Shown piece after piece: positions 37,718 to 58,735 of a DNA stretch of 64,000 nt (positions are counted from its first letter, which is position 1; every line of letters starts with the position of its first letter). The notes under the pieces are model-generated. The model ran no database searches and had not been told where the DNA came from. It saw only the letters and a program-made list of their open reading frames with translations. Both the position numbers and the translations under genes were made by a program. This stretch comes from Sedimentisphaerales bacterium (lineage in GTDB: Bacteria > Planctomycetota > Phycisphaerae > Sedimentisphaerales > SM23-30), in the NCBI GenBank assembly GCA_963666285.1, contig OY762711.1; one strand, 5' to 3'.

Positions 37718-37805
37718 GTATTTTTCCTATATTCGTGAATGGTTATTGATCCTGTCCTTGTTTGATATTATTTAGGGAATAATATATGTGCGGTCAAGGT
37801 AAGCA

Positions 37806-39869
37806 TTAAGTCCCTATATTTAATGCTGTGCCAACCTGAAATACCAGGGTGGTGAGCCCAAATGCTATAACTGTAAGGCCGACGAACTGGAAAATAGCCC
37901 ATTTCCAGTTTGTCTCTCTTCGACATACTGCCAGAGTGGCCATACACGGTGCACTGATCAGGCAGAACAGCATGATGCAGAAGCCTTGAAGCGGGTTGTA
38001 GTTGTTTTTGAGTTTGTCTCTCAGTGTGTCAGATTCTTCATCTGTTTCACCTACGGAAAAGACGATACCCATTTGAGCGACAAAGACTTCCTTAGCGGCA
38101 AGAGCTCCCAGTAGAGCTGTGCCTATTTTGTAGTCAAAGCCCATTGGTTTGATAACAGGTTCCATCGTTTTACCTATTCTGCCGACGATAGAGTATTCCA
38201 GCTCGGCCTGCTGGACTTGTTCGGCGGTCAATCCTTCCAGTGATTCGGCAGAAGGTTTTGGGTAAACGGTTGCAGCCCATAAAGCGATAGATATCCATAA
38301 GATAACGGTACCGGCTTTTTTGAGGTATAGCCAGCTGCGGTTTGATACATGGATTGACAGGCCTCGTAAAGTCGGCATACGGTAGGGCGGCAGTTCCATC
38401 AGGAAGATTCCGCTCTGGCCTTTGAGTATCGTTCTTCGCAGTATAGCGGCAAGAATAACTGCTAGAATAATTCCTATAACGTACATAAGCCACATAACAA
38501 ATCCTCGCCATTGAACCGGGAAAAAGGCAGGGATAATAAGTGAATAAATTGGCAGCCTGGCACCGCAGCTCATAAGCGGCAGGATGAGAATTGTGGCAAA
38601 TCTACTCTTTTTATCTTCTAATATTCTGGTGCCCATAATTGCCGGTACGGTACAGCCAAAGCCGATGACCATTGGGATAAAGCTTCTGCCGTGCAGTCCG
38701 ATTTTTTTCATGATACGGTCCATGAGGAATGCCGCTCTTGCCATATAGCCGCTGTCTTCGAGCATGGAAATAGCAAGGAAGAGAAGTACGATATTTGGTA
38801 GAAAGACAATTACGCCGCCTACTCCGCCTATTATGCCATCGACAATAAGTGACTTCAGGTGGCCGTCCGGTATTATGTTGGAAATGCCGGTGCTTAGTAT
38901 TCCAAAGCCACTTTCAATCAAGCCCATGAGCGGATCGCCCGCCCAGAAAACCAGTTTGAAGACAAGGTACATCATGAGAAAGAAAATGGGCAGTCCGATA
39001 GCACGGTTAAGTAAGAATGTGTCAATAGTGTCGCTGATGTCGTGGTGACGCTGTGCTGTATGTTTAACAGCCTGTTCGTGTACTCCAGAGATGAACCCGT
39101 AGCGTTTTTCCGCAATAACAACATCAGGCCGGTCACCGAAAAGTTTATCCAGTTTTGAAGCACTTTCGTGGGCAGCTTCGAGAACTTCGATGTTATGTTC
39201 TTTGCTCAAGATATCTTCGTCATGTTCGAGCAGTTTAAGTGCGATCCATCTTCTACCGTATTTTTGTGCAAGGGTGTGATCTTTATTTACGACAGATGAA
39301 AGTTTGTCGAGTTCTTTTTCGATATCGTCGCCATAATTGATCAGGTTTGCAGAGTCAATATTACCGGGATTGTTTGCTTTGTCGATTACCGCATCGAGCA
39401 GTTCGTTCAGGCCTGAACCTTTTGAACCGATAGTAAGTACAACATTTGCGTTAAAGAATTTACTGATTTTAGCAATGTCGAATGTGAAACCCTGTTTTTC
39501 CGCGATGTCTGCCATATTGAGAGCAAGTACCATCGGTACATTAAGTTCCATAATCTGCGTGGTGAGATATAGATTTCTTTCGAAATTGCCAGAATCGATA
39601 ACATTTATAACAACATCCGGTTTTTCCAGGATAAGGTAATCTCTGGCAACAACCTCTTCGACCGAGTTGGCAGCTAACGAATATGTGCCAGGCAGGTCAA
39701 CCAGGTTGACCTGATAATCTTTGTATATTTTAGTGCCTTCTTTTTTTTCTACAGTAACGCCAGGGTAATTTCCAACATTCTGCTTGGCACCAGTAAAAGC
39801 ATTGAATATTGTTGTTTTACCGCTATTAGGATTACCCGCGATAGCTACTGTAAGTTTTTTATTTTGCAT
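37806..39869 (-). CDS. feoB: Ferrous iron transporter B
   Basis: GNPNSGKT, GNYPGVTVE, DLPGTYS, EDSGYMARAAF, GFGC, MSCGARLP, MELPPYRMP. Confidence 0.95.
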   Translation of the reverse strand: MQNKKLTVAIAGNPNSGKTTIFNAFTGAKQNVGNYPGVTVEKKEGTKIYKDYQVNLVDLPGTYSLAANSVEEVVARDYLILEKPDVVINVIDSGNFERNLYLTTQIMELNVPMVLALNMADIAEKQGFTFDIAKISKFFNANVVLTIGSKGSGLNELLDAVIDKANNPGNIDSANLINYGDDIEKELDKLSSVVNKDHTLAQKYGRRWIALKLLEHDEDILSKEHNIEVLEAAHESASKLDKLFGDRPDVVIAEKRYGFISGVHEQAVKHTAQRHHDISDTIDTFLLNRAIGLPIFFLMMYLVFKLVFWAGDPLMGLIESGFGILSTGISNIIPDGHLKSLIVDGIIGGVGGVIVFLPNIVLLFLAISMLEDSGYMARAAFLMDRIMKKIGLHGRSFIPMVIGFGCTVPAIMGTRILEDKKSRFATILILPLMSCGARLPIYSLIIPAFFPVQWRGFVMWLMYVIGIILAVILAAILRRTILKGQSGIFLMELPPYRMPTLRGLSIHVSNRSWLYLKKAGTVILWISIALWAATVYPKPSAESLEGLTAEQVQQAELEYSIVGRIGKTMEPVIKPMGFDYKIGTALLGALAAKEVFVAQMGIVFSVGETDEESDTLRDKLKNNYNPLQGFCIMLFCLISAPCMATLAVCRRETNWKWAIFQFVGLTVIAFGLTTLVFQVGTALNIGT

Positions 39870-39884
39870 TGTATCAATCCTGTA

Positions 39885-40646
39885 CTATTGCTGTTCGACA
39901 ATGATGTTAACCGCTTCGTTTTTTCTGATAGATAAATGGTACCCTTTAACCTTAATCTCTATAGGGTCGCCAAGCGGCGCTACTCTCTCAACCTCAATGA
40001 CTGTGCCGCGGCTAATGCCCATTTCGGCCAGTCGTTTTGATGCAGAAGACCCTCTTTTGACTCTTTGGACGATACATTTATTGCCGGGTTTGATGTCCAG
40101 CAGGGTTTGGGGTTCGGTTTCATCGGTCATCTTTGCAATTTCCTTTTTGTGTCTGTTTGCGGTATCCTCAAGGCATGTCTGACAGGATTCCGAGCTGCTG
40201 AGGTGCAGTTTCTGGGTATAGCTTTGGAATCTATCGACCCAGTTTTTGCCGCATTTAGGACATGCCTGGATGAATTCAGAAAATAGTATTATCCGATCGA
40301 TAATCTCGTCCGGGACAGCGTGTTCCATCTCACAAGCTCCTTTTTCGGCAATGTCGGAATTGACGCCCAGTATGTTTTCGAAAAAGTCGCTTAGAGTTTC
40401 GTGTTTTCTGATAATTTCGAGTGCTTTTTCCTGGCCTTCCGGAGTAATGGAGATGAGTTCGTAAGGTGCATAGTTTATAAGTTTCATTTTTGTAAGGGCT
40501 TGTAGAGCGCCGGTGACAGATCCGGCCTTGACGTTAAGCCTGTCAGCGATGTCCTTTGCCCGTGCAGCTCCTTTATCGGCGACTATCAGGTAAATAGTTT
40601 CCAGGTAGTCTTCCAGGCTGGCACTAAGTTGTATGTTTTTAGTCAT
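39885..40646 (-). CDS. DtxR/MntR-family metal-dependent repressor with C-terminal FeoA domain
   Basis: SLEDYLETIY, ACEMEH, C-terminal RLAEMGI...APLGDPIEIKVKGY. Confidence 0.9.
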   Translation of the reverse strand: MTKNIQLSASLEDYLETIYLIVADKGAARAKDIADRLNVKAGSVTGALQALTKMKLINYAPYELISITPEGQEKALEIIRKHETLSDFFENILGVNSDIAEKGACEMEHAVPDEIIDRIILFSEFIQACPKCGKNWVDRFQSYTQKLHLSSSESCQTCLEDTANRHKKEIAKMTDETEPQTLLDIKPGNKCIVQRVKRGSSASKRLAEMGISRGTVIEVERVAPLGDPIEIKVKGYHLSIRKNEAVNIIVEQQ

Positions 40647-40661
40647 GAAAAAGCCTTTCTT

Positions 40662-40694
40662 TTAGTCCTATCTAATTTTATAAGGCCAGCCTAA
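40662..40694. promoter_or_regulatory. Two DtxR/MntR-type boxes upstream of the repressor-feoB operon
   Basis: TTAGTCCTATCTAA (40662-40675) and TAAGGCCAGCCTAA (40681-40694), TTAG-N6-CTAA-like dyads. Confidence 0.6.
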
Positions 40695-40749
40695 CTTTGT
40701 CAATATTTTTTTATTTTTTGGAGGTTTCAAGGGAGAGGTGTTTTTCATA

Positions 40750-42500
40750 TATTTAGCACCAGGCGAAACTTGGAGCAGAGCAGGCATAGCCTGCACCAGA
40801 CCTCAGCAGCCTCGCTGCGTTCGGACCAGACATAGTCTGGACCAGACCTCGCTTTGCTCGGTAACGAATAGAGATTGTCAATTCTAGAGGGCAAATCAGA
40901 ATGATTTGCCGAGGCGTGATACAAATATTCAGTTTTTCAAAGAGCAAAATTTATGTAAAAGACGAAGTATTCGTCGTTGTTAAGTTTTAACGAGAGCAGT
41001 TTTTTTGTCGGTAATCATTTTTATTAGCTCTCTACAATTGGACGGTATGTCGAAAGTGCGCTGATTTTTTTGATGGGATGGTTGGTTTGGAAGTTTGTAA
41101 GGTGTTGTGGATAAGCGGGATAATAATTTTGAAGATTTTAGATTTTCGCGATTTGGTGGATGTAAAAACGAGATGATTTTTTCGAGAAAATCAGGGGCCA
41201 GGGATCAGGTTTCAGATGCCAGGGAAGGTTGCTCGCTACCGCTCGCGGGTAATTGATGGGTAACGGGAGGTGTGCGGAAAGGTAACGGGACAGCGCGGAG
41301 GTGGGACGGCGGTGAAAAGGGGTGCGGATTTGAACGGCGGGGAATTGCGGGCTGCGGACAGTATACGGCGGAACGTTGAATGGGTGCGGCGGTATACGGA
41401 CTGGAACGAAGCGGAGAAGCGACGAGCTACGCTAAATGAAAATGAATAATGAAAAATGAAAAGTTGAGGTGTCCGCTTCGCGGACGGCTTGTTTTAAACG
41501 GCTACGCCGAACGACGGAAGGTCGTTAGAGATTAGAGCAGGTGAGCAGAAGAACAGGCAATCAGCAGCGAGCCAACAGCGGCCAGCGAGCAGCCAAGCTG
41601 CTAGAGATTAGAGCAGATGACAGTGGAACAGGAGGAAGATAAATACGTGCTACGCACTCTGGCACATCATTGGACAAGTCCAATGATGTGAAGGTGTCGC
41701 TACGCAACCTGTTTGAATAATGTGCCGAGCTCCGCCTGAGGCGGATTTCAATCAGCTCAGCGTTCCCAGGAGTGAAGGTGTCGCTACGCGACCTGTTTTA
41801 AACGGGTTCGGCGAAAAGCAGAACCATCAATGAACGCGGATGAACACTGATAAGATGTTGCTAACGCGACGGATGTTTCATGCTCAGTGTTACCAGAGGT
41901 GAAGGAGGGGTTAAAAAACGGAATGAAATTGAAGAGTGCGGGGATATAAGAACGAATGCATGGCGGGTTCAGGGAAGAGTTGCGGCGGGGAGGGGATTTT
42001 GCGGATATTTACGTAAGTTGTTATTTTTGGATTGTGGGCGGACCAGATGCCGCGAAGCGGCATCTGAAGTCTGAAGTTTGAAGTCTGAATTCTGAAAAGA
42101 TGGTGTTCGCCTAGCGGCTCACAACTTATTTTAAAGCTGTTGCATATTTAAATTCAGAATTATGAAAAAGATTGGCAACCACGAAAATTCACGAAAGAAC
42201 ACGAAAAAAAATACTGTTGCTCGCAGAGGACGCAAAGATCGCAAAGAATATTACCTGGCCATGAAGGGAATGCGTTAAATTTAAAATTAAAAATTAAGAA
42301 TTGAGAATTAAAAAGAACTGAAAAATACAAGGCTGCGATAAGTACCAATAATTATAAGATGGCTTGCTTCAGCCTTCGTTAAAGCTATGGTTCGACAAGA
42401 CCGGACGTGATTAATAATTCTGAACCACTGATGCACGCGGATGGACACCGATAAGAAAATGTTTAGATAACTTGACGGTAAATTTTACAACCACGAAAAT
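40750..42500. repeat. Non-coding mosaic of short tandem repeats and hairpins (part 1)
   Basis: No credible ORF; 7-mer and 9-mer tandem runs, recurring AGGTGTC-hairpin-TTTTAAA modules, REP-like palindromes. Confidence 0.75.
42176..42210 (+). repeat. Empty (uninterrupted) IS target repeat
   Basis: CAACCACGA-AAAT-TCACGAAAGAACACGAAAA is the sequence obtained by joining the flanks of either IS copy. Confidence 0.9.
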
Positions 42501-42619
42501 ACAATGAAAGCCAGAATATTCCTGTAGCATGGCTTGTGTTATAATACACAATAATTTTAGCACGAGCTGTCACAGGGACGCTCAAATATTTAACCAATTT
42601 TATACGGAGTATTCTGGCT

Positions 42620-43666
42620 ATGAAGACTATTATGTCAATTGATTTAGGAAAATTCAAGAGTGTAGTTTGTTTTTATGAGGTAAAAAGCTGTAAGGCTATA
42701 TATAAGTCGTTTAAGACTAACCCTCAAGAGCTTCATGACCTGGCAGTATCTCACCCTGCTGATCTTATTGTATTTGAGGCTTGTGATATCATAGGCTGGA
42801 TTTGTGACCTTTTTGACACCCTGGAATTAAAATATGAAGTGGCAAATACTAATACCGGCGAATGGTCTGGCAGAAAATTGAAGAAGAAAACAGATAAAAA
42901 GGATGCATTTTGGCTGGCCAAGCGTGCTGCTTTAGGAGATTTATCAACTGTCTATGTTCCTAAAAAGGAAATTCGAGAGAAACGATCTTTAATTAATTAT
43001 CGCCAGAGCCTTACAGAACGGATAACTCAGGTAAAAAATACTATTCGTTCTTTATTAAATGCCCAGGCGTATTCGTTGCCGTCAGGCAGAAAGTGCTGGT
43101 CTAAGCAGAATCTGGAACAGTTAAGAAGTATGGCTATGCCAATGGATAAAGTTAAACCAGATGAGCTCTGGAAAGGCAATCTATGGAGCGAGCTTATATT
43201 ACTGGAACAATTAACAGACGCTTTGCAAGTAGTTGAAGATAAACTGGAAGAGTTAAATAGTACTGATGAAAAGGTAAAACTATTACAGACTGTTCCCGGA
43301 GTTGGCCCACGTCTGGCAGAGGCAGTTGCAGCTTATATTGATGATCCACATAGATTTAAGAATTGCAAACAAGTTGGCAGCTATATTGGTATGACACCGC
43401 GTCAGTACCAATCAGGTAATACAGACCGTCATGGGCGGATAAGTAAATATGGCAATAGGTTATTGCGAGCATTACTTGTTGAGGTTTGCTGGCTGGGTTT
43501 GCGTTGGAATCCATGGATAAAAGAAACATACGAAAGAATAAAGAGGGGAAGTAAAACTCGTGCAAAAATAGCGATAGTAGCTACAGCCCGACGGTTGTTC
43601 GTACGATTGTGGGCGATGATGCGAGATGGGACAAGTTGGCAGATGCCTGAATTGCAAAGTGTTTGA
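42620..43666 (+). CDS. IS110-family DEDD transposase/recombinase
   Basis: SIDLGK, FEAC, KTDKKDA (DEDD); TVPGVG; QYQSG; GRISKYGNRLLR. Confidence 0.95.
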   Translation: MKTIMSIDLGKFKSVVCFYEVKSCKAIYKSFKTNPQELHDLAVSHPADLIVFEACDIIGWICDLFDTLELKYEVANTNTGEWSGRKLKKKTDKKDAFWLAKRAALGDLSTVYVPKKEIREKRSLINYRQSLTERITQVKNTIRSLLNAQAYSLPSGRKCWSKQNLEQLRSMAMPMDKVKPDELWKGNLWSELILLEQLTDALQVVEDKLEELNSTDEKVKLLQTVPGVGPRLAEAVAAYIDDPHRFKNCKQVGSYIGMTPRQYQSGNTDRHGRISKYGNRLLRALLVEVCWLGLRWNPWIKETYERIKRGSKTRAKIAIVATARRLFVRLWAMMRDGTSWQMPELQSV

Positions 43667-43699
43667 TACCAATATAAGTAAAATATAAATATTACCTAT

Positions 43700-43900
43700 G
43701 ATTTTGCCCGATTGAAATCGATACGGAACCTTGGTCGTGCATTTGGGTTTTGAACCTGACACGAAAATTAAGCCGTATCGCAATATATATAATGGAACCA
43801 TGGCGTAAAATACAGCCTCGGACACTCCGGATAGAAAGATGAAACAATCAGGTAAATAATGATTCGCTACGCGAAAATTGTTTTAAATAGGTTTATCGCA
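43700..43900 (+). ncRNA. Candidate bridge/seekRNA of IS copy 1 (boundaries approximate)
   Basis: Stem CGATACGG/CCGTATCG closes an internal loop holding TCGTGCATTT (complement of right target) and CACGAAAATT (left target). Confidence 0.75.
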
Positions 43901-44069
43901 TAAGGTCAAAAAGCAAAAAACGAGGCGGTGTAAAACCGCCCCGGCTTCTTGACAACTTGCAACGCTCGGGTTGCTCCTCAGCAGAGCCCTATCCTTTGCA
44001 AGATAAAGGAATTATAGCAAAAATGAATAAAATTAGAAAATTAATGTTGCATTCTGGCTTCATAGAAAT

Positions 44070-44544
44070 TCACGAAAGAACACGAAAAAAAATACTGTTG
44101 CTCGCAGAGGCCGCAAGGTTCGCAAAGTATCATTTCAAATATGGCACTGACCGACACGGGCAGGCACAGGCAAACACGGTAGGCAGCAATCAGCAATCAG
44201 CAATCAGCTACGAGCGGCGAGCGAACAGTGAAGAGGAAATACGTGCTGCGCACTCTGGCACATCATTGGACAAGTCCAATGATGTGAAGGTGTCGCCTGG
44301 CGGCGAGGATGATTAAAAAATAATGGGGAGGCTTGTTTATTCACCCGGTTGAAACCGGGGGCTACCAAAAATTAGCAGTCAGCGGCGAGCGATGCTAAGT
44401 GAAAAATGAATAATGAAAAGTGAAAAGTTGAGGTGTCCTGATATACGTTGACATCAGGAATAATTCGCTGTCGCTCACGACTTATTTTTAAGCTGTCGCA
44501 TATTTAAATTCAGAATTATGAAAAAGATTGTCAACCACGAAAAT
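44070..44544. repeat. Repeat mosaic between the IS copies (part 2)
   Basis: Re-uses modules from 41430-41700 and 42125-42260; CAATCAG tandem run; GTAG-type hairpin at 44342-44367. Confidence 0.75.
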
Positions 44545-44663
44545 ACAATGAAAGCCAGAATATTCCTGTAGCATGGCTTGTGTTATAATACACAATAATT
44601 TTAGCACGAGCTGTCACAGGGACGCTCAAATATTTAACCAATTTTATACGGAGTATTCTGGCT

Positions 44664-45710
44664 ATGAAGACTATTATGTCAATTGATTTAGGAAAATTCA
44701 AGAGTGTAGTTTGTTTTTATGAGGTAAAAAGCTGTAAGGCTATATATAAGTCGTTTAAGACTAACCCTCAAGAGCTTCATGACCTGGCAGTATCTCACCC
44801 TGCTGATCTTATTGTATTTGAGGCTTGTGATATCATAGGCTGGATTTGTGACCTTTTTGACACCCTGGAATTAAAATATGAAGTGGCAAATACTAATACC
44901 GGCGAATGGTCTGGCAGAAAATTGAAGAAGAAAACAGATAAAAAGGATGCATTTTGGCTGGCCAAGCGTGCTGCTTTAGGAGATTTATCAACTGTCTATG
45001 TTCCTAAAAAGGAAATTCGAGAGAAACGATCTTTAATTAATTATCGCCAGAGCCTTACAGAACGGATAACTCAGGTAAAAAATACTATTCGTTCTTTATT
45101 AAATGCCCAGGCGTATTCGTTGCCGTCAGGCAGAAAGTGCTGGTCTAAGCAGAATCTGGAACAGTTAAGAAGTATGGCTATGCCAATGGATAAAGTTAAA
45201 CCAGATGAGCTCTGGAAAGGCAATCTATGGAGCGAGCTTATATTACTGGAACAATTAACAGACGCTTTGCAAGTAGTTGAAGATAAACTGGAAGAGTTAA
45301 ATAGTACTGATGAAAAGGTAAAACTATTACAGACTGTTCCCGGAGTTGGCCCACGTCTGGCAGAGGCAGTTGCAGCTTATATTGATGATCCACATAGATT
45401 TAAGAATTGCAAACAAGTTGGCAGCTATATTGGTATGACACCGCGTCAGTACCAATCAGGTAATACAGACCGTCATGGGCGGATAAGTAAATATGGCAAT
45501 AGGTTATTGCGAGCATTACTTGTTGAGGTTTGCTGGCTGGGTTTGCGTTGGAATCCATGGATAAAAGAAACATACGAAAGAATAAAGAGGGGAAGTAAAA
45601 CTCGTGCAAAAATAGCGATAGTAGCTACAGCCCGACGGTTGTTCGTACGATTGTGGGCGATGATGCGAGATGGGACAAGTTGGCAGATGCCTGAATTGCA
45701 AAGTGTTTGA
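44664..45710 (+). CDS. IS110-family DEDD transposase/recombinase
   Basis: Protein identical to 42620..43666. Confidence 0.95.
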   Translation: MKTIMSIDLGKFKSVVCFYEVKSCKAIYKSFKTNPQELHDLAVSHPADLIVFEACDIIGWICDLFDTLELKYEVANTNTGEWSGRKLKKKTDKKDAFWLAKRAALGDLSTVYVPKKEIREKRSLINYRQSLTERITQVKNTIRSLLNAQAYSLPSGRKCWSKQNLEQLRSMAMPMDKVKPDELWKGNLWSELILLEQLTDALQVVEDKLEELNSTDEKVKLLQTVPGVGPRLAEAVAAYIDDPHRFKNCKQVGSYIGMTPRQYQSGNTDRHGRISKYGNRLLRALLVEVCWLGLRWNPWIKETYERIKRGSKTRAKIAIVATARRLFVRLWAMMRDGTSWQMPELQSV

Positions 45711-45743
45711 TACCAATATAAGTAAAATATAAATATTACCTAT

Positions 45744-45944
45744 GATTTTGCCCGATTGAAATCGATACGGAACCTTGGTCGTGCATTTGGGTTTTGAACC
45801 TGACACGAAAATTAAGCCGTATCGCAATATATATAATGGAACCATGGCGTAAAATACAGCCTCGGACACTCCGGATAGAAAGATGAAACAATCAGGTAAA
45901 TAATGATTCGCTACGCGAAAATTGTTTTAAATAGGTTTATCGCA
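45744..45944 (+). ncRNA. Candidate bridge/seekRNA of IS copy 2 (boundaries approximate)
   Basis: Same sequence as 43700-43900. Confidence 0.75.
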
Positions 45945-46113
45945 TAAGGTCAAAAAGCAAAAAACGAGGCGGTGTAAAACCGCCCCGGCTTCTTGACAAC
46001 TTGCAACGCTCGGGTTGCTCCTCAGCAGAGCCCTATCCTTTGCAAGATAAAGGAATTATAGCAAAAATGAATAAAATTAGAAAATTAATGTTGCATTCTG
46101 GCTTCATAGAAAT

Positions 46114-46700
46114 TCACGAAAGAACACGAAAAAAAACTGTTGCTCGCAGAGGCCGCAAAGATCGCAAAGAATATTACTTGATCATGAAGGGAGTGGAGTT
46201 AATGAAGGAGAATAGAAGAGCGAAGCATTGCTAAGTGAAAAGTTATTAAGGTGGCCGCCTATCCTTCGACTAGCTCAGGACAGGTCGGTTCACGACTTGT
46301 TTTAAAGCTGTTGCTACGGATTGTAGAAAAAACGGATTGTGGTAAGTTGGGGAAATGGAATTTTGACTGTAACTAATGAGTGGGGTTGCGGTATAAGAGT
46401 GTGTGGTGTGAGTGAAGATGACATCAGGAATAATTTGCTTTCGCGAACTATTTTAAAGCTCCGCAAACACAGAATCTGACGCAAATAACGCACCTGTGAA
46501 TGCTTACAAGAATGAAATGAGATGGAAGCGATTGGCAGGTGGGCAGCTAAAGGCAACGGCTGTCAGCGGACAGCAAGCAGGATGGGATGTTAATTCCACA
46601 TTGTGCTGCGCACTTCGGCACTTTTCAGGCGGAGCTGAAAAGTGGAGGTATTGCCTGGCGGCGAGGCTTGTTACAAATGATGAGAATATCGGGATGGTTT
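46114..46700. repeat. Repeat mosaic (part 3)
   Basis: Right half of the target unit, then further AGGT-hairpin-TTTTAAA-type modules (46249-46306, 46420-46456, 46646-46678). Confidence 0.7.
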
Positions 46701-47075
46701 AGGAGATTTTCCGGTGTGAGTTTGTGTTGAGGGGCTGGTGCGAGTGTTGGTGTTGTTGGGGTGTTGTAAGTGGTTGTATTATAGTGGTTTATGTTGTGGT
46801 GGTTTCGTGTTGGAAATGAAGGCAATGTTTTTTGAATTGCGGCGTCAATTTTGATGGTAAGTGTTTGGGGAATTGGCGTTTATTTGGTATAATACTATTG
46901 TTTTGAGATTGATTTTGTCTTTTGGCCGGGAAAGAACAGTTTTTTCTCCCGGAAGTTAAGTTTTTTAATAATTGCAGTAGAGTTAAGTCTTGTTTTGAAA
47001 AGAAGTTAGAGGATGAAAAACTGAACGGGTGAACAGTTGAGCAGAAGAAAGAAATATGAGTCTGGAGTCATAAAA

Positions 47076-50000
47076 ATGAAAAATATAATAACTTGTGTGT
47101 TAATTGTATTGTTATGGATGTCAACATTTGCATTTGGTGTGGGTGGAGTTTTGCCTGGGAGTGGGACAGTGAGTGATCCGTATTTGATAGAGGATCTGGC
47201 GGATTTTGATGTGTTTGCGGATGAGGCTAATGCCGGGACGTATTGGGCGAGCGGTGTGTATGCGAAACTGGTGTGTGATATAGATTTGAATGGTCGTGTA
47301 TATGATAGAGCTGTTATTGCATGGGATACAGATGATACAAATGGTGTTAATTTTGATGGAGCAGATTATTCAGGGATCTTTGAAGGTAATAATCACATAA
47401 TAAGTAATATTTCGCTAGAGACTTATTATTACGCAGGGCTTTTTGGTCGGTTAAATAATGGTTCAATTTTAAATCTAGGTGTCGAAAATATAAACATTAC
47501 AAGTTCCAATGGATATAGTGAATATGTTGGTGGTTTGGTCAGCTGTAGTATAAGCAGCTTAATCAATAATTGTTACACAATAGCAACAATTGAGACGGGT
47601 GGTTCTATGGTTGGCGGACTGGCAGGTTGTAATGGGTATGGCAGTACAATTGAAAAATGTTATAGCAATGCAACGGTTTCCGGATACCAATTAATTGGTG
47701 GTTTAGTCGGACTCAATAAAAGTAGTGGTACAATAAACGAAAGTTATGCTATTGGTTATATATCTGGCAGCAGGCTTGTAGGTGGTCTGGCGGGAAGGAA
47801 TTACGGTGGGTCAATATATTGGAGTAATGCATCAAGTACAGTTTCCTGTGATAATGAGATGGTTGGCGGTTTAGCAGGAGGTTCTTCTACTGGTTCCATA
47901 ATTTCTAATTGTTACTCAACGGGTACTATTACTGGAGATGCATATAAGGCCGGAGGCTTGATTGGTGATCTGGAATATGGACAATTATTGAGTTGTTATT
48001 CGCATTGTAGTGTATCAGGATCAAATTCAGTTGGAGGTCTTATTGGATCAGCAAAAGTATTAGATGTGGAATATTGCTATTCAACTGGAGTAGTGTCTGG
48101 AAGCCGATACCCTGGCGGTTTTATGGGATACTTATATTCCGGAAGCTCAGGTATAAAATCATGTTTCTGGGATGTTGACAGTTCTGGTATGACGAACGGA
48201 TTTAGCAGTTATAATATTGGAACGATTTCAGAACTGCAAGGGCTGAATACAGGTGAGATGCAAACTCGATCTACTTTTACTGATGCAGGATGGGACTTTA
48301 TTGATGAGAGCAGCAATGGTACTGATGACTTTTGGTCAATGAAATTATATCCAATATTAAGTATTAATACTGATGGATTTATTTCTATTCCTGACATAAC
48401 AAGCTTACCCCAGATTGATGCAGAAGCGTTAATAATAAGTTCAGGTTTTGTGCCAGGCAATATTAGTTATGATTATAACAGCATAATTCCTGAAGGAAAT
48501 GTAATTAGTCAATTTCCTTTAGCAGGTAAAATGAGGGTGTCAGGCGCCTACATTAATTATACTTTATCATTGGGAGTTTATCCTATTACTGGTTTGGGTA
48601 CAAAAGAATCCCCATATATTATTTCTGATTTTGAAGGTTTTAATATTTTCTGTGATCCGGAAAATGCAGTGAAATACTGGGAGGAGGGAGTTTATACTAG
48701 ATTAGACAATGATATTGACCTGGATCCAGTTTTACCTGACAGGCAGTTGTATACTATGGCACCAATATCACCAGATAGTGCTGGTTCAGGATATCAGGGA
48801 AAAGAATTCAGTGGAGTGTTTGACGGAAGTGGTAAAATAGTAAGTAACCTTACTATCGATGGATCATACTATTGTGGTATGTTTGGTAGAATAGGAACCA
48901 GCGGTTCAGTTATTAACCTCGGTTTGGAAAATGTTTCTGTTACCGGTTCATTTGATAATATTAGCGGACTTGCGGGAGAAAGTTCCGGCAATGTCAGCAA
49001 TTGCTACATTACCGGCATTGTTAGCGGGAGAGACGCTGTTGGCGGGCTTGTTGCAGAAAATAATAGAGGTAGTATTGATAATTGTTACAGCACATGCTCT
49101 GTGACAGGCGATTATGAAATTGGTGGTCTAGTTGGATCTAATTATTTTGGCAGTATTAGTAATTGTTACAGCATTGGTATTGTAGACGGGAATTTACTTG
49201 AGGGCGGACTGGTCGGAAGCGATCTTTCAGGTATCATTAGTAATTGTTATTTATATATTTATTGTGGTTTGAATAATGGACATGGTATTCCACTGGATGA
49301 TACTGGATTAGAGACAAAATCCAGTTTTTCCGGATTTGACTTTACCGGCGATAATGCTGATGGTTCTGGGGATTACTGGGCTATTGAGCCTGGTTATATG
49401 CCAAGACTTGTTTGGCAGGAATCTCCCGGTTTTAATGCGCCATATTTAATTGACAATATTACTACCAGCTTACTAGGCAGCGGTTATTCTGATGACCCTT
49501 TTATAATAGATAGTTATAGTGATCTAATGATATTTAAGAGCGACTCATCTCTGCGAATCGGCTACTACAGCTTAACAACTGATATAGATTTGTCAGGCAT
49601 AACATATACAGAAGCGTTTATACCGGATGATTTTTTCGGAATATTCCAGGGTAATGGTCATCGTATCTCCAACTTAACGATTGATAGTGATTCTAACCTG
49701 GGTTTGTTTGGTAGACTTAATGGTACAGTAGACAATCTAATCCTTGATGACATATCGATAAACGGCACAGGTTCTTATGTCGGTGGGGCAGCAGGAAACA
49801 ATTATTATGGCATTATCAGTAATTGCTATGTTACGGGCAGTATAGTTGGTTTGGGTAACTATGTTGGCGGACTGGCTGGGCGTAGTTATGGTAACATCAG
49901 CAATTGTTGCAACGAAAGTAATATTAGCGGCTCTTATCAAAGCACTGGTGGTTTAACGGGGGATAATTCTGGCAGAGTCATGAAAAGTTACAGTACCGGC

Positions 50001-51635
50001 AATGTAGAAGGAAGAAGTGCTGTTGGTGGTCTAGTGGGAAATAATTATGGCACTATTGTTAACAGTTACAGTACAGGTGATGTTAGCAGTTCTAATAATT
50101 ATGTTGGTGGTCTTGTTGGGACATTTACATCAGGAGATATGAGTAATTGCTATAGCACCGGAAAAGTGAACGGTTTACATTTTATTGGCGGTTTGGTAGG
50201 AGATTATCAACCAGAAACTGACAATGTCTGCAATTGTTATTTTTATGTTCATAGCGGTCCTAATAATGGCTATGGAATGTATCTTGATGATGTTGGCTTA
50301 GAGTCAAAATCCAGTTTTTTCGGTTTTGATTTTACAGGTGATGATACAGATGGCTCGGAAGATATTTGGGAAATTGATCCAGGTTACATGCCTAGACTTG
50401 TTTGGCAGGAAACTCTGGGCTTTAATGCTCCATATTTAATTGACAATATTTCTACCAGCTTAACCGGCAGTGGTTATCCTGATGCCCCATTTATTATAGA
50501 TAATTTAGATGATTTGCTGGAGTTTAAGAATAATAATGCACTTCGTATCGGATGCTATAGTTTAACGAGTGATATTGATTTAGCTAGCGTAACATATACA
50601 GAAGCGTTTATACCGGATGATTTTTTCGGAATATTCCAGGGTAATGGTCATCGTATTTCTAATTTAATGATTGATGGTGATTCTTACCTTGGTTTTTATA
50701 GTAAATTATGTGGTACCGTTGGTAATCTTGTCCTAGAGAATGTGTTCATAAATGGCTCAGATGATTATGTTGGCGGTTTGGTAGGAGACAATTATTATGG
50801 CAATATCATTAATTGTAATGTTTCAGGCAGTGTATCCGGTTTAGATCGTTATGTTGGTGGATTAGCGGGAGACAATTATTATGGCAGTATTAGCAATTGC
50901 TATTCCAGTTCAATTGTTACCGGCTATCGTTATGTTGGCGGCTTGGTGGGAAACAACTACAATGGTATAATTACCAAAAGTTATAACACCGGTACAACAA
51001 ATGGTACTGGTTATTCTATCGGCGGACTTACAGGAGAAAATTATAATGGTAGCATAAGCAGTAGTTTTAGTACCGGAATTGTGAACGGAGAAAGCTATAC
51101 AGGCGGCCTGTGTGGATCGAATTCCAGTGGAGATGTGAGTAACTGCTATGCCACAGGAGATGTTATTGGTTTTTATTCTGTCGGCGGTTTGGTAGGAGAG
51201 AATAATTATGCAAATATCAGTTACAGTTACAGTATCGGAGCAGTTTCTGGTAATAGTGTTGTGGGTGGATTTTGTGGAAATAATATTAGTGCCACTATCA
51301 GCAGTTGTTTCTGGGATATTGAAACTTCTGGTAGGACAATGAGTAATGGAAGTATTGGCAAATCAACAGCAGAGATGCAGATGGTAAGCACCTTCACTGA
51401 TGCGGGTTGGGATTTTGTAGGTGAGGATGGAAATGGTAGTGAGGATTTGTGGCGTATGCCGTATGCTATGCCGGGTTATCCGATACTGGCGTGGCAGAAG
51501 GATATCGCGGGCGATATAGCAGGTGGATATGGTGTGGATATGGAAGATGCAGCTCTGCTGGCGAGTGGTTGGATGGAGAACTATACAAAGGCAGATTTGG
51601 AAACTCTGGCGTCTAACTGGCTGGCGGGGAAGTGA
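47076..51635 (+). CDS. Secreted GLUG-repeat protein with one PASTA domain and a C-terminal dockerin-like motif
   Basis: Signal peptide MKNIITC; many VGGLVG..N...I.NCYS.G repeats; GSGT..DPYLI modules; PASTA (IPDITSLPQIDAEALI...VISQFP); GDIAGGYGVDMEDAALLASGW. Confidence 0.88.
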   Translation: MKNIITCVLIVLLWMSTFAFGVGGVLPGSGTVSDPYLIEDLADFDVFADEANAGTYWASGVYAKLVCDIDLNGRVYDRAVIAWDTDDTNGVNFDGADYSGIFEGNNHIISNISLETYYYAGLFGRLNNGSILNLGVENINITSSNGYSEYVGGLVSCSISSLINNCYTIATIETGGSMVGGLAGCNGYGSTIEKCYSNATVSGYQLIGGLVGLNKSSGTINESYAIGYISGSRLVGGLAGRNYGGSIYWSNASSTVSCDNEMVGGLAGGSSTGSIISNCYSTGTITGDAYKAGGLIGDLEYGQLLSCYSHCSVSGSNSVGGLIGSAKVLDVEYCYSTGVVSGSRYPGGFMGYLYSGSSGIKSCFWDVDSSGMTNGFSSYNIGTISELQGLNTGEMQTRSTFTDAGWDFIDESSNGTDDFWSMKLYPILSINTDGFISIPDITSLPQIDAEALIISSGFVPGNISYDYNSIIPEGNVISQFPLAGKMRVSGAYINYTLSLGVYPITGLGTKESPYIISDFEGFNIFCDPENAVKYWEEGVYTRLDNDIDLDPVLPDRQLYTMAPISPDSAGSGYQGKEFSGVFDGSGKIVSNLTIDGSYYCGMFGRIGTSGSVINLGLENVSVTGSFDNISGLAGESSGNVSNCYITGIVSGRDAVGGLVAENNRGSIDNCYSTCSVTGDYEIGGLVGSNYFGSISNCYSIGIVDGNLLEGGLVGSDLSGIISNCYLYIYCGLNNGHGIPLDDTGLETKSSFSGFDFTGDNADGSGDYWAIEPGYMPRLVWQESPGFNAPYLIDNITTSLLGSGYSDDPFIIDSYSDLMIFKSDSSLRIGYYSLTTDIDLSGITYTEAFIPDDFFGIFQGNGHRISNLTIDSDSNLGLFGRLNGTVDNLILDDISINGTGSYVGGAAGNNYYGIISNCYVTGSIVGLGNYVGGLAGRSYGNISNCCNESNISGSYQSTGGLTGDNSGRVMKSYSTGNVEGRSAVGGLVGNNYGTIVNSYSTGDVSSSNNYVGGLVGTFTSGDMSNCYSTGKVNGLHFIGGLVGDYQPETDNVCNCYFYVHSGPNNGYGMYLDDVGLESKSSFFGFDFTGDDTDGSEDIWEIDPGYMPRLVWQETLGFNAPYLIDNISTSLTGSGYPDAPFIIDNLDDLLEFKNNNALRIGCYSLTSDIDLASVTYTEAFIPDDFFGIFQGNGHRISNLMIDGDSYLGFYSKLCGTVGNLVLENVFINGSDDYVGGLVGDNYYGNIINCNVSGSVSGLDRYVGGLAGDNYYGSISNCYSSSIVTGYRYVGGLVGNNYNGIITKSYNTGTTNGTGYSIGGLTGENYNGSISSSFSTGIVNGESYTGGLCGSNSSGDVSNCYATGDVIGFYSVGGLVGENNYANISYSYSIGAVSGNSVVGGFCGNNISATISSCFWDIETSGRTMSNGSIGKSTAEMQMVSTFTDAGWDFVGEDGNGSEDLWRMPYAMPGYPILAWQKDIAGDIAGGYGVDMEDAALLASGWMENYTKADLETLASNWLAGK

Positions 51636-51809
51636 GAAAACAGTGGTTAGGTTACAGGTGCCAGAGTATAGGGTTTGAAAGCCGCGGGCCTTTGATGTAC
51701 TCAGGGCAGACGGCAAGGTAATTTATATAAGTGTGTTTTAGTTTTGTGTATTATGCGAGGCATGCTTGTGGCAGTTCAGCATTGTACACGTAATGTCTGA
51801 TAGTGAAAT

Positions 51810-51968
51810 TAGAGCAATTTAATTTTTCGTGTTCGCTTTTTACCTGTTGCGGCTTCGGCTGACTTCATCAGAAATACTCGTAATATATCAATATTCCTGT
51901 GTTTTCTTCTTTATCAGCCTCGTCCTCACAGAGGCAAAAATCGGAACAGAAAATATTAAAGTGCTCTA
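51810..51968. mobile_element. ~160 bp MITE-like element, copy 1
   Basis: Terminal IRs TAGAGCAATTTAAT...ATTAAAGTGCTCTA; reverse-complement copy at 59037-59214. Confidence 0.75.
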
Positions 51969-52061
51969 GAATTGCAGTTGAACGCAAATAATGCGTATAG
52001 GAAGAAGGGATAATGTAGTCGATGGCTGCATATAGAAATTGTGAAAACAGGAGAGTCTAAA

Positions 52062-55000
52062 ATGCAAAAGCTGAGTCTAATGATTTTGAGTCTGGTTTTG
52101 GTAGTAAGTGGGATGGTAAATGCTGCTGGTGGGGCTATGCCGGGGAGTGGGACGGAGTCTGATCCGTATTTGATAGAGGATCTGGCGGATTTTGATGTGT
52201 TTGCGGATGAGGCTAATGCCGGGACATATTGGTCGAGCGGTGTGTATACGAAACTGGTGTGTGATATAGATTTGAGCGGTCGGGTGTATGACAAGGCAGT
52301 GATAGCACCGGATACAGATAATACACAATTATGGTATCAGGGGAATAATTACTATGGAGTTTTTGATGGAAATGGTCATAAAATAACCGGTTTGACAATT
52401 ACGCCAACTGCCGGAGAAGATTATCTTGGCCTGTTTGGCAGGCTTTTGGGTTCTACAGCTGCAATAAAAAATCTTAATGTAGAAAATTATTCTATAACAG
52501 GAACCAACTTAAGTGATGTGTTGGGAGCAATATGCGGGATGTGTGTAGAAGCTAAGATTGATAGTTGTCATGGAAAAGGGATGGTGTCAGGATGTTATTA
52601 CCTAGGAGGTGTTTGCGGAGTATTAGCGGGAGGAGAAATAATTGACAGCAGTATAGAATGTGAAATTATTTGCAATAATAGTGTTTATGCCGGTGGTATA
52701 TGTGGTATTATTGATGGTAGTTCTTCTATAACAGACTGCTCCAGTGTAGGTGTAATATCAGGAATTGGTTTTACAAGAAAAATTGGTTGTTTGTGCGGCT
52801 ATAATAATTCATCGACGATCAGCAGGTGCTCGGCAGAAGGTTCGATCAGGCTTGGAGTTGATTCAGAATTAGTTGGCGGTTTTTGCGGCGAGAATAATTC
52901 TGGAACGATTGAACATAGCTATAGCCAGGTTTCTGTCGAAGGAGGTGACAGTTTAGGTGTGTTTTGTGGTTCGAACAATGACGGTACGATACGCAAATGT
53001 TATGCCAGTGGTGATATTCGTGGTGAAAGTAATGTTGGCGGTTTTTTGGGTTATAACAATACAGATGAATATTTAGTAACATATTGTTATTCTTCAGTTT
53101 TAGTATTAGGTATGGATAGGGATACAACGGGCGGCTTTTGTGGTGATTATGAATCCAAATCATCTTTATATTGTATCTACGATGGGGAAAAGAACAGTTA
53201 TTATTATGTTGGCGGTGCGTATCCTGCATCAACAGCCGAGATGCAAATGATGAGTACTTATACTGATAAAAACTGGGATTTTGTAAATTATTCTAATGGC
53301 GGGACAGATTCTGACTGGTATATGGCAGATTATCCGATATTATCATGGCAGATTGAAGAGTTCGTTGAGATGCCTTATGTTGGTAATATACTGCCGTCAG
53401 AAGCAGATGTTATGTTGGCTAATGCAGGTTTGCTTACAGGAGTGGTGAGCAATGAATACAGTAATGTTGTTGCAGAAGGTATGATAATCAGCCTGGAATA
53501 TGAAGCGGGAGACTATCTGGCAAGCGGTTCGAGTGTTGATTATACTGTATCTCTCGGAGTATGGCCGGTAGTGCCGGAGTTGGTAATGATGACATTGGCT
53601 GGCGCAGAATCGGCGATATTGGATGCCGGTCTGGAATTTGGTGGGGCCGGTTATGTTTACCATGATTTCTTCGAGCCGGGAAGAGTTTGCAGTCAGTATC
53701 CTGCTGCGGGTGTAATGTTAGGGGCTGGAGAGAAGGTATATATTAATGTTTCGCTGGGAGTGTGCCCGGGATTGGCAGGCAGCGGAACGGAGGAAGATCC
53801 TTACCTGATAGCGAGCCTGGCAGATTTTGTTGAGTTTTCTGATGTTGATAATGAAGGAGTTTACTGGGCGGAAGGTGTGTATGCCAGGCTAACAAATGAT
53901 ATTGATCTTGAGACAATGAATTATACAAACTCGGTTGTATCGTCATATAATGGTATTTTTGACGGTGATGGTCATGTGATAAGTAATTTGCGGATAGGAA
54001 GTATGGATGGTTTTGGTGACCTGGGACTGTTTGGTTGGCTGCGTGCAGGTTCTGTGGTAAGGGCTCTTGGTCTGGAAGATGTCGAAGTTCGGTCGGGTAA
54101 CAGGTCGAATTATATAGGCTCTCTTTGCGGGATGATTTATGGCGAAGGAGCAAAGATTGAGGGCTGCTATTCAACCGGAAGTGTAACAGCGGGCGAGGGA
54201 GTGAATTTTGTCGGCGGTCTGTGCGGCAGAGTGGCAAACGAAGGTGTATTGACAGATTCGTATTCAGTTTGTACGGTATCTGCAGGTAGGAACTCGGACA
54301 ATATTGGCGGTCTGTGTGGGGCAGTTAATGGCACAGTTGCTTATTGTTATGCCGGGGGAGATGTAAGTGGAGAAGGAGTTAGAGTCGGCGGATTGTGCGG
54401 CGGAATAGGTACGTGGTCGGGTATAACCGGGACAGTATCAAACAGCTATGCAACCGGTTCTATAAGCGGTGTGGATTATGTCGGCGGCTTTTGCGGGGAA
54501 AGTATTTCAGATGTAGTAATAAACTGTTATGCAACAGGCGAGGTAAGCGGCGAAGATTATATAGGAGGTTTTATTGGTTATGGCAGTGCGAGCGGCTGCT
54601 ATGCAACGGGAAATGTTACGGGGGCCTCTAAAGTAGGTGGCTTTGTCGGTTACGGCGGCGGCGAGAATTGTTATGCTACGGGTGAGGTTACGGGATTGGC
54701 TGAGGTTGGCGGTTTTGTCGGAACTTTGTATAATGTCGATGTGAAATATTGTTATTCGACCGGTAAGGTATCAGGGTATTCAGAAGTTGGTGGTTTTATC
54801 GGGGTATTAAAAGAAGGCGTTTCGGAGAGTAATTTCTGGGATGTTGAAGCGAGCGGATTCGGCAGTGTTGGTGATGTATGGGCAGGTTCAACCGGCATGA
54901 CAACGGCACAGATGCAGACGAGGCAGACGTATGGTGATGCGGATTGGAATATGGTTTATCAGGCTTCAAATTATGATTCCCGAGAATACATTGCGCCAGA

Positions 55001-56849: not shown

Positions 56850-56923
56850 TTTTCAGTAAAAAGAATTAACTTTTGTGTGGGCATTCTTCTGATTCATTAC
56901 AGGAGATGCCCATTTTTTTTCAG

Positions 56924-58021
56924 CTATTTCCCGTAGCAGATGCTCGGTCCGAGGTGGTTGGGGAAGTGGTTGTTTTCGAAGAGGAACTTGCGGGTATCAT
57001 AGCACAGGTGGCATTTGCCGGTGTAAGTCGGCTTGGGCCGGAATCCGAGCGTGACGGCGTGTTGGGCCAGCCCGTAGGGTCCGGAATTGGTGAGGGTAGA
57101 CCATATCGGATGGGTGGTGAAGTTATAGTCTAGCCATAGGTCTTTGAGCGAGTATTCCGAGTTGATTTTGCCGGTGATAATGCCTATGCAGGTGCTGCTG
57201 AAGACATTTCCCATGCCGTCGATATGGACACCCTTGGCGTCCATGTGTGATTTACGGCATCCGGCGGATTTGAACTGTTCAAACGGTTTCTGGTCAACGA
57301 GAGGAGCGAGTTGTTCAGCGGCTCGGCCAACCATCCGTTCGGGAATTTTGGCGAGAGCGTCTTTGAATGCCTGGTTTAGCTGAGTTTGGCTCATGGATTC
57401 GGTGTGGGTCGGATTAGCGGCGAAATCCCGCCATCGAACCTGTACTTTATCATCGCCGAGTATTTCCGTTGCAATACGTATGCCCCGCTGTACGCATTCT
57501 GTTGGGACATATTGCTGATGATAGCAGTCTGTGCTTATTTGCAGTTTTGTGAGGCCAAGATTGGCGAGTTCTTCTATTCTTTTGGTTGTAATATCGTCAT
57601 TTATACACCATGCTGCGTTGGTTTCGACCTTTTCGAGCCCTCCGAGACGTTCCTGCTGAGCGATTTTGAGGGTGTCGCGCAGAGTTTCATATCGCAGGAA
57701 AGGTTCGCCTCCGGTAATATGTACCAGTCCCTCCTGTCCGCAAAGCTGCCGGGTAGCACGCCAGCAGTCGATAGCCATTTCGAGCGACATTTCAGTATCG
57801 GGTGAGTTGATATCCGGGGCGGAAAAGACATAGCAGCAGGCGCAGGCCGCGGGGCATCGGTAGGTGAGCATAATGCCAACAGACCGCCATAGTTTATACT
57901 TTGGAGCATTGCGAGGCTGGTCCATATTGAAGGCATTTTCGTATAGATTAACAGGTTCTTTCTTATTTGTCATACAGGGAATTTTAGCTTTTTGAGTCGA
58001 AATTAGCAAGGAAAGATACAA
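56924..58021 (-). CDS. Radical SAM protein with C-terminal Cys cluster
   Basis: YRCPAACACC (CxxxCxxC), HITGGEPF, ETNAAW, CHLC; true start probably downstream of the listed one. Confidence 0.85.
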   Translation of the reverse strand: MYLSLLISTQKAKIPCMTNKKEPVNLYENAFNMDQPRNAPKYKLWRSVGIMLTYRCPAACACCYVFSAPDINSPDTEMSLEMAIDCWRATRQLCGQEGLVHITGGEPFLRYETLRDTLKIAQQERLGGLEKVETNAAWCINDDITTKRIEELANLGLTKLQISTDCYHQQYVPTECVQRGIRIATEILGDDKVQVRWRDFAANPTHTESMSQTQLNQAFKDALAKIPERMVGRAAEQLAPLVDQKPFEQFKSAGCRKSHMDAKGVHIDGMGNVFSSTCIGIITGKINSEYSLKDLWLDYNFTTHPIWSTLTNSGPYGLAQHAVTLGFRPKPTYTGKCHLCYDTRKFLFENNHFPNHLGPSICYGK

Positions 58022-58477: not shown

Positions 58478-58735
58478 ATGGCGAAAAAAGCCGCGAAGAA
58501 AACTGCTAAAAAACCTGCTAAGAAAGCTGCTGCTAAAAAACCTGCTAAGAAAGCTGCATCAAGAGAAGTATTGGTTGTAGCCAGCAAGGTAAAAGCTTAC
58601 ATCAAGAGCAAAGGCATGATGTGCAGCAGTGACGCTGTTCAGGCACTATCAGAAAAAATTTACTGCATCCTGGATTGTGCATGCACACGCACCGAAGCTA
58701 ACCGTCGCAGCACAGTTAAGCCTCAGGATCTGTAA
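58478..58735 (+). CDS. Bacterial histone-fold protein with Lys/Ala/Pro-rich N-terminal tail
   Basis: GGAGGA RBS; LVVASKVKAYIKSKG..SSDAV..LSEKI...L..A..R...NRRSTVKPQD histone fold with RxTxxxxD motif. Confidence 0.85.
   Translation: MAKKAAKKTAKKPAKKAAAKKPAKKAASREVLVVASKVKAYIKSKGMMCSSDAVQALSEKIYCILDCACTRTEANRRSTVKPQDL

Follow-up and report, generated by a model that had tools for sequence, protein, structure and literature searches.

Non-coding mosaic elements and one-sided purine-rich domains in a Sedimentisphaerales genome

Extra DNA synthesis from a fixed site beside mostly non-coding DNA into host genes is described in Bartonella as run-off replication from a phage-derived origin, and that account presents one bidirectional origin whose peak coincides with a helicase gene, together with amplification of DNA (PMC2697382). 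Repetitive extragenic palindromes (REPs) are non-autonomous hairpins that cluster, one inserting into or next to another, REPINs being presented as inverted doublets tied to one REP-associated tyrosine transposase (RAYT) (PMC3116915); the title of another report names REPs as targets of insertion sequences (IS) (PMC1525189). Intergenic heptamer repeats of the TAACTGA type are 7-nt runs that keep to a preferred orientation, and their mechanism is given as unknown (PMC4679880). Replication and transcription are the usual explanation for the strand asymmetry of bacterial chromosomes (PMC3269012). Here we analyze a 64,000-nucleotide stretch of contig OY762711.1 of a Sedimentisphaerales bacterium (GCA_963666285.1), called the window below, and the non-coding element found in it, which consists of a ~500-bp head followed by a reshuffled chain of modules. 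The element measures ~2.8 kb without its two IS1111-type insertions. Positions without prefix are those of the window.

Bartonella run-off replication is the closest working analogy to this element, and REP/REPIN clusters together with heptamer repeats are its closest architectural relatives; defining features of each of these systems are missing here. Unlike the single Bartonella origin, the sites of this genome are one-directional, gene-free, counted in dozens and known from their footprint on composition alone, and neither the locus nor the copies of the head carry a phage-type helicase or initiator gene. In contrast to REPINs, the modules are of many types, are never inverted and are coupled to tandem arms and to a head of 500 bp. 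No inverted REP doublets occur among the module loci, and the only RAYT-like open reading frame (ORF) seen in the genome (C1:3258144) has no modules in its inspected flanks. In a congener (G001), an ORF named by eye as RAYT-like has a hairpin-TTTAAA-like unit and a REP-like repeat as neighbors (L076:8540-8800). The TAACTGA-type heptamer repeats, as far as the account in PMC4679880 describes them, have no link to four-helix-bundle genes or intervening sequences and no heads or skew domains. The 23S rRNA intervening sequence with S23p (PMC4990558) shares the four-helix-bundle family whose cassette arms match our 7-nt runs; here, however, there is one arm orientation, no gene and a non-rRNA site. 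Our search, which covered few subscription papers, found no published description of such skew domains or of such arrays of arms and cassettes.

One-sided purine domains

Skew was measured at four-fold degenerate sites of mechanically called ORFs, after removal of gene-strand and replichore effects, and was compared with random placement; an orientation-flip null was set aside, not being centred on zero for signed bins. The head (~500 bp from position 40925) has 31 copies in the genome with ~78 to 88% identity, one of them truncated after 225 bp. The GC skew residual was positive downstream of 30 of the 31 heads and upstream of 15, and the downstream value exceeded the upstream one at 27 of 31 (Wilcoxon test; P = 5e-6). 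None of 3,000 random placements reached the downstream GC value or the asymmetry. The one exception to the downstream GC skew is the copy truncated before an array of CGG motifs. The purine residual was positive downstream of all 30 head-bearing arrays (upstream, 12/30) and of 30 of 33 large headless arrays (upstream, 17/33); for small modules, the counts were 109/118 downstream and 101/118 upstream. Large arrays are one-sided, and small modules sit inside domains, with skew on both sides. On the element's strand, A and G are enriched, and T and C depleted, relative to the background in all four classes of gene strand and replichore, and the loss of T on this strand equals the loss of A on the other. 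The excess ramps up from ~3.5 kb upstream of the head, stands at ~+0.2 between 2 and 20 kb and is near zero by ~50 kb.

Since the skew flips with gene strand, it does not reflect codon choice. Genes with old orthologues, identified against 1.6 of the 4.6 Mb of the congener G003, showed a residual of +0.243 downstream (73 genes) and +0.012 upstream (70 genes), and the two gene strands behaved alike; that old orthologues carry the skew downstream indicates that it arose in place. Such genes are equally frequent on both sides (13% downstream, 16% upstream). A one-strand purine excess would need asymmetric transversions. Hypermutation in the domains, suggested by lower synonymous identity, was considered and rejected, the signal having come from recently shared islands. 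Loss of MutS as a cause was likewise rejected, as MutS is present. Separately, 36 genes had at least 90% amino-acid identity to copies in the G003 sample (median, 73%), and many of them lie in skew-free regions; these similarities suggest recent exchange of islands with G003. Contigs C2 to C4 (three, ~65 kb) have no purine domains.

Replication leaves another signature in this genome, G>C with T>A, and the replichores have no purine skew (beta, -0.02). Elements show no preference relative to the fork: 61 of 108 are on the leading strand (P = 0.21), as are 19 of the 31 heads. Another idea is that the domains are ancestral blocks of leading-strand skew scrambled by inversions between repeats. 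The repeats do recombine, and rearrangement or transfer can change the polarity of skew (PMC3269012). However, the present replichores offer no purine skew to scramble, skew on both sides would be expected where co-oriented repeats form breakpoints, and the observed signal decays gradually, so that we give this idea almost no credence.

The element contains an array of helically phased CGG motifs (41246..41414, plus strand), a candidate protein-binding start site of the purine domain. Between 41200 and 41430, there are 18 CGG and 1 CCG, with gaps of 11, 11, 10, and 11. The genome holds 76 CGG arrays, whose pair distances peak at 10/11, 21, and 31/32, i.e., at helical multiples. Elements combining a CGG array with modules had a downstream domain in 61 of 62 cases and an upstream one in 26. 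Even the small module loci are one-sided when they carry a CGG array (downstream, 14/14; mean upstream, -0.04), whereas the 104 small loci without it are two-sided (0.165 upstream, 0.181 downstream).

Nothing in the original prediction, made from the letters of the window, concerned the conserved head, the targeting by IS or the one-sided purine domain. At this locus, the purine-rich domain at four-fold sites spans 37800..58000 (plus strand); the residuals of single genes between 38 and 58 kb range from +0.04 to +0.18. Its flanks are mostly zero or negative at 22 to 36.5 kb and reach -0.33 to -0.35 at 59.6 to 62.5 kb. An opposing head lies at C1:747 kb.

A candidate entry site for strand re-synthesis

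We consider it about an even bet that the polar element, with its conserved head, phased CGG motifs and chain of gene-less arms and mini-hairpins at the start of a domain, is an entry site for one-way re-copying of a strand. A protein would load or nick at or near the head, and the element's strand would be re-synthesized 5' to 3', the other strand being the exposed template. Too many purines would be incorporated, e.g., at positions facing purines that are lost or damaged, and over long times this excess would skew synonymous sites. One-way copying, together with homology-driven exchange, could stack arms in one orientation, erode the pyrimidine-rich inverted arms and turn the array into a place where IS110, IS3, and group II introns readily insert, the arms being passengers of the re-synthesis sites. 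A fuller version, to which we lean somewhat less, holds that the genome has ~60 to 75 dispersed, unidirectional copy-start sites at which a species-specific protein acts on phased motifs and re-synthesis covers tens of kilobases, with arms carried along. What calls for explanation is a purine excess of ~+0.2 at synonymous sites over 20 kb, which begins at oriented non-coding elements, dozens of them, and follows neither replication nor transcription. If the elements cause it, they would be a third source of bacterial strand asymmetry and would mark an unrecognized pathway of one-way DNA synthesis or processing, testable because its start sites are defined and clonable. Widespread mini-gene cassettes flanked by arms would then be tied to a host process, and the single arm orientation that survives here would be explained.

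Several observations weigh against this re-synthesis model. The evidence for it is all compositional, with no enzyme, nick, intermediate or mutation observed. Of the relaxases that a conjugative oriT would call for, TrwC and MobA/VirD2 were not found in the genome (other relaxase families were not searched). A raised mutation rate was not shown, four-fold sites being saturated (0.30 to 0.37 identical in all classes). The domain of this locus is itself modest, and the start of domains is not sharp, because the ramp begins before the head. The 14 CGG arrays without modules have little effect (9/14 downstream; +0.047); of 16 large arrays in which no CGG array was detected, 14 are nonetheless followed by a domain downstream. 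The congener G003 has strong domains and four CGG-rich windows in 1.6 Mb, unphased, and the four CGG-rich windows of G017 are not one-sided in the expected direction. The congener G001 gives a weak picture, two of seven runs in 200 kb agreeing with the local skew. Finally, domains are partly common to this genome and G003 (41 genes with the same sign and 25 with the opposite one), so that some of them may predate the present arrays. Since the windows of G003 and G017 do not fit, the CGG array is not a trigger common to relatives; the trigger may be a species-specific motif or a combination of parts.

The samples of other genomes covered 180 to 1,600 kb each, and 50 kb for Escherichia coli. In G003, domains extend up to 100 to 200 kb and accompany a mosaic repeat family of its own, and the polarity of the runs agrees with local skew in 61/62 and 42/48 cases (103/110); the five runs of G017 all agree. 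The more distant relative G031 (runs agree, 3/6) and the E. coli stretch are flat. At C1:205-220 kb and 673-713 kb of G003 (L109 and L132 to L134), points where domains diverge hold skew-free islands, whose contents were named by eye as restriction-modification-like genes, integrases and a duplicated ATPase cluster.

These comparisons are also where a passive role of the arrays has to be weighed, namely, that another nearby feature starts the domains and that arms, hairpins and IS merely accumulate there, oriented by the bias of the domain. Several observations fit passivity: the 104 small loci without CGG sit symmetrically inside domains; the domains of G003 go with another repeat family, in a genome that lacks phased CGG arrays; the ramp is already rising before the head; and G031 has runs and no domains. 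Yet the elements with CGG and modules are one-sided, the truncated head has no domain, and no other common feature was found at the domain starts. We regard passive arrays as rather unlikely.

Cassette arms, hairpin units and mosaic copies

The original prediction described a strand-polarised series of tandem runs and hairpin-TTTTAAA units lying outside the IS copies without host genes. The runs are where it placed them, TRF reporting 41434-62, 42063-96, 42180-209, 42277-314, 44184-208, and 44397-428, and the 10-mer arms at 41821-55 and 42422-56 (family D20) were found as well. Outside the IS, the sole ORF of at least 90 amino acids (43957-44316) has no Pfam match. Polarity holds throughout the genome: modules are co-oriented in 75 of 76 multi-piece loci, and adjacent runs are in 44 of 46 pairs. 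All nine of the listed hairpin units exist, and only three (41467, 41776, and 42100) have both canonical ends; 44431 and 46249 hold extra inserted hairpins, and one of the two ends is degenerate in 41692, 44288, 46420, and 46646. The IS copies contain two further units (43863 and 45907). A tandem run precedes 108 of the 181 matches to the hairpin-unit anchor on the chromosome, against 0/27 and 0/17 in two shuffled sequences of 2 Mb. The statement that hairpin sequences vary while pairing is kept was too strong, since a single compensatory T-A change was found among 50 copies of the commonest hairpin type. Stems are mostly invariant with variable loops, and the different hairpins are alternative modules rather than covarying versions of one.

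A long structured RNA, or a leader of the downstream GLUG genes, had also been proposed. The module chain folds better than its shuffles (z = -2.7) and has 13 terminator-like hairpins where 5.3 are expected; its folding, however, is the sum of local inserts. There was no Rfam match at an E value of ≤1, the head gave z values of +0.97 and -1.79, and a double change was seen in 2 of its 50 predicted pairs across 21 copies. As for a GLUG leader, the 31 copies adjoin unrelated genes, and 13 of the 24 readable ones have their next long ORF on the opposite strand. An RNA of either kind is highly improbable. Nor is the head a decayed protein-coding gene, as it lacks codon periodicity and has stops in all six frames.

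To place the runs, we compared flanks of the best-scoring loci, one per genome, from 61 genomes searched (29 four-helix-bundle and 30 GxxExxY loci). Periodic runs of 6 to 8 nt precede four-helix-bundle genes at 21 of 29 loci, and runs of 9 to 11 nt precede none; before GxxExxY genes, runs of 9 to 10 nt occur at 15 of 30 loci and those of 6 to 8 nt at none. The 9/10-mer arms of the window match the flanks of GxxExxY genes only, forward upstream and inverted downstream. Exact heptamer words are rarely common to the window and the relatives, and it is the period alone that matches. Because the runs match arms that flank cassettes in relatives, we read those of the locus as cassette arms without genes, and the link to four-helix-bundle and GxxExxY cassettes made in the original prediction stands. 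Within the window there is no match to either family, nor any mini-gene enclosed by an arm and an inverted second one. In the genome as a whole, the four-helix-bundle search gave 10 matches and the GxxExxY search none over the cut-off, while intact GxxExxY genes are found in the congeners (3 and 11 matches). In relatives, an inverted downstream arm accompanies 14 of 24 and 11 of 17 cassettes that have an upstream arm; here it was found at none of nine four-helix-bundle loci, several of which have weak arms. A run followed by a hairpin unit stands directly before the start codon at two of the nine loci examined in this genome. Two module loci retain about the last 35 codons of a GxxExxY gene, by weak matches (E values of about 0.002 to 0.01). 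These 3' remnants (C1:4811539-4811649 and C1:5794793-5794906, minus strand) are similar, and each is followed by an inverted arm inside the module locus. At C1:45322-46061, two tandem four-helix-bundle cassettes and the start of a third each open with the same run, as if the cassette had been duplicated as a unit.

The cassette idea thus has two parts of unequal standing. Emptied cassettes account for the origin of the runs; an integron-like array, in which a site-specific system inserts and excises mini-gene cassettes as integrons do at attC and the skew comes from the captured DNA, is improbable. In its favor, the arms match cassette flanks, direct repeats flank four of nine four-helix-bundle genes here, and GxxExxY genes persist in congeners and survive as remnants in this genome, which has none over the cut-off. 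Against it, no integron integrase (TIGR02249) passed the cut-off in the genome, and the modules are heterogeneous, with more than one type of site. Judged on 1.6 of the 4.6 Mb of one congener, there is no array of acquired cassettes or enrichment in accessory genes downstream: old orthologues are as frequent there as upstream and carry the skew themselves, while recently shared islands fall in the flat class. DUF559 was not found in this genome, and one small GIY-YIG ORF was.

The hairpin unit occurs without a run inside the IS and within a run in G003, so it is a separate micro-insert. Of 86 GC-rich triloops in the elements, 52 read GNA on the minus strand and 15 on the plus strand (random DNA, 22 and 17 of 187). 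This excess recalls diversity-generating retroelements (DGRs), in which a reverse transcriptase (RT) with an Avd-like four-helix-bundle partner would prime at GNA-loop hairpins and copy the pyrimidine-rich strand with adenine bias. TIGR02436 we take to be homologous to Avd, and T lost on the element's strand is A lost on the other. The geometry, too, resembles that described for DGR targets, where a GC-rich stem with a G..A loop (GRNA) lies on the adenine-losing strand, 3' of the altered region (PMC3240598). In contrast to that GRNA tetraloop hairpin, stems here are of 4 to 6 bp, mostly with triloops, and the scale is tens of kilobases. The three RT loci look like group II introns (two inspected as introns; the class is judged from context), and we saw neither a DGR RT nor a pair of template and variable repeats. 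The effect is the same for genes of either strand, contrary to what copying from an RNA template should produce, and C falls as well. A DGR-like process is therefore very doubtful.

Copies of the element are mosaics. Segments of the locus outside the IS match 180 loci in the genome, and the locus divides into 13 blocks of at least 93% identity with best matches at many different loci. Chains behind the heads usually measure 1.0 to 1.8 kb with ragged ends, that of this locus being among the longest. Linkage among 30 heads drops from an r2 of 0.52 to 0.03 beyond 60 nt, and none of 2,000 permutations had incompatibility between near sites as low as observed, which shows that patches are exchanged between copies. 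An old copy at C1:768000-769600, ~70% identical like another at C1:1419800-1419960, has the same order of modules; the backbone of the element is therefore long-lived. Contig depth in two runs of one sample, possibly the source, was ~31× for the head and ~8× for the IS relative to single copy, in agreement with the assembly, and contigs of that sample skip 1,569 nt at IS copy 1. Upstream and downstream contig depths were similar, a comparison that we do not count as evidence. The head was not found in 40 relatives, 12 of which have short modules only, and exact-pattern scans for the head or the anchor had no hit in metagenome, genome or viral contigs.

Other copies are interrupted by IS3 and by a second IS110, and a related array by a group II intron (named by eye from translations). 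At C1:910700-912650, a group II intron with a 443-amino-acid RT interrupts a 7-nt run belonging to a module chain and has an IS110 copy on either side, and the same intron recurs at C1:5395338-5397289. Another repeat of ~190 bp with at least 30 copies (C1:5956650-5956840) adjoins a three-copy element of ~1.8 kb; the ends of the three-copy Rep-like element are absent among the head matches.

Anatomy of the locus and its insertion sequences

All features of the locus are on the plus strand. Optional extension modules with small hairpins (40802..40924), present in a subset of copies, precede the first part of the conserved head (40925..41245), which has two invariant small stems and ends in a 7-nt run and a hairpin. 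After the CGG array come a 7-nt run and a hairpin-TTTTAAA unit (41434..41498), laid out as directly before the four-helix-bundle genes at C1:8299 and C1:5096210, and then a CAGC-type run, a small hairpin, a 28-nt palindromic insert (41663-41690) and the hairpin units 41692 and 41776 (together 41557..41802). A GxxExxY-type arm of 10-nt period (41821..41855) is followed by a second shared block with eight CGG motifs, a 23-nt palindrome, the TCTGAAG run (42063-96) and hairpin unit 42100 (41898..42135). The next chain of GxxExxY-type 9/10-nt arms, with one 7-nt run (42277-314), covers 42178..42499; it is 93% identical to a chain at C1:3.96 Mb, and its stretch 42178-42193 is an empty IS target. Between the IS copies, the chain (44069..44543) holds arms, runs, a palindromic insert and hairpin units, and a distal chain (46113..46680) holds arms and the units at 46249, 46420, and 46646.

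The two IS copies (42500..44068, with the transposase at 42620-43666, and 44544..46112) are identical, 1,569 bp each, and the second lies in another copy of the same arm. They are ordinary members of the IS1111 group, and their biology is known. As described for IS110 elements of this group with a bridge RNA (PMC11208160), they have a DEDD recombinase (DEDD_Tnp_IS110 and Transposase_20), sub-terminal inverted repeats (here of 13 nt), a long right end with target guides (~400 nt, against 120 nt for the left end) and a fixed repeat as the target. They differ from that description in that the target is a GxxExxY-type cassette arm and the right end has gained a hairpin-TTTTAAA insert without a tandem run (43863..43887 and again 45907-45931). 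The IS has nine copies in the genome, all behind the same 10-mer, and 11 sites with a second arm unit have no IS, one of them at 42178, besides 23 lone 9-mers that are likewise unoccupied. The predicted target guides (43735..43769) start at 43735, where 9 of 10 positions match the target's reverse complement, and at 43760, where all 10 match the target itself. Both matches were reached in none of 400 shuffles, and donor guides were not clearly found.

Some minor features complete the picture. The head contains a perfect 9-mer (41106-41114) that fits what we take to be the DnaA-box consensus and is not kept in the other 20 aligned copies. Its edge (40925-40945, minus strand) presumably resembles a boxA antitermination sequence, in some copies only. 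A loose TAAGT...TTA-type motif recurs at 42013, 46766, and 46858, both within the element, where the sequence is AT/GT-rich, and ahead of the first GLUG gene. Farther downstream, a tandem repeat coding for lysine, alanine and proline (58484-58557) lies in an ORF of 90 amino acids whose product is presumably histone-like.

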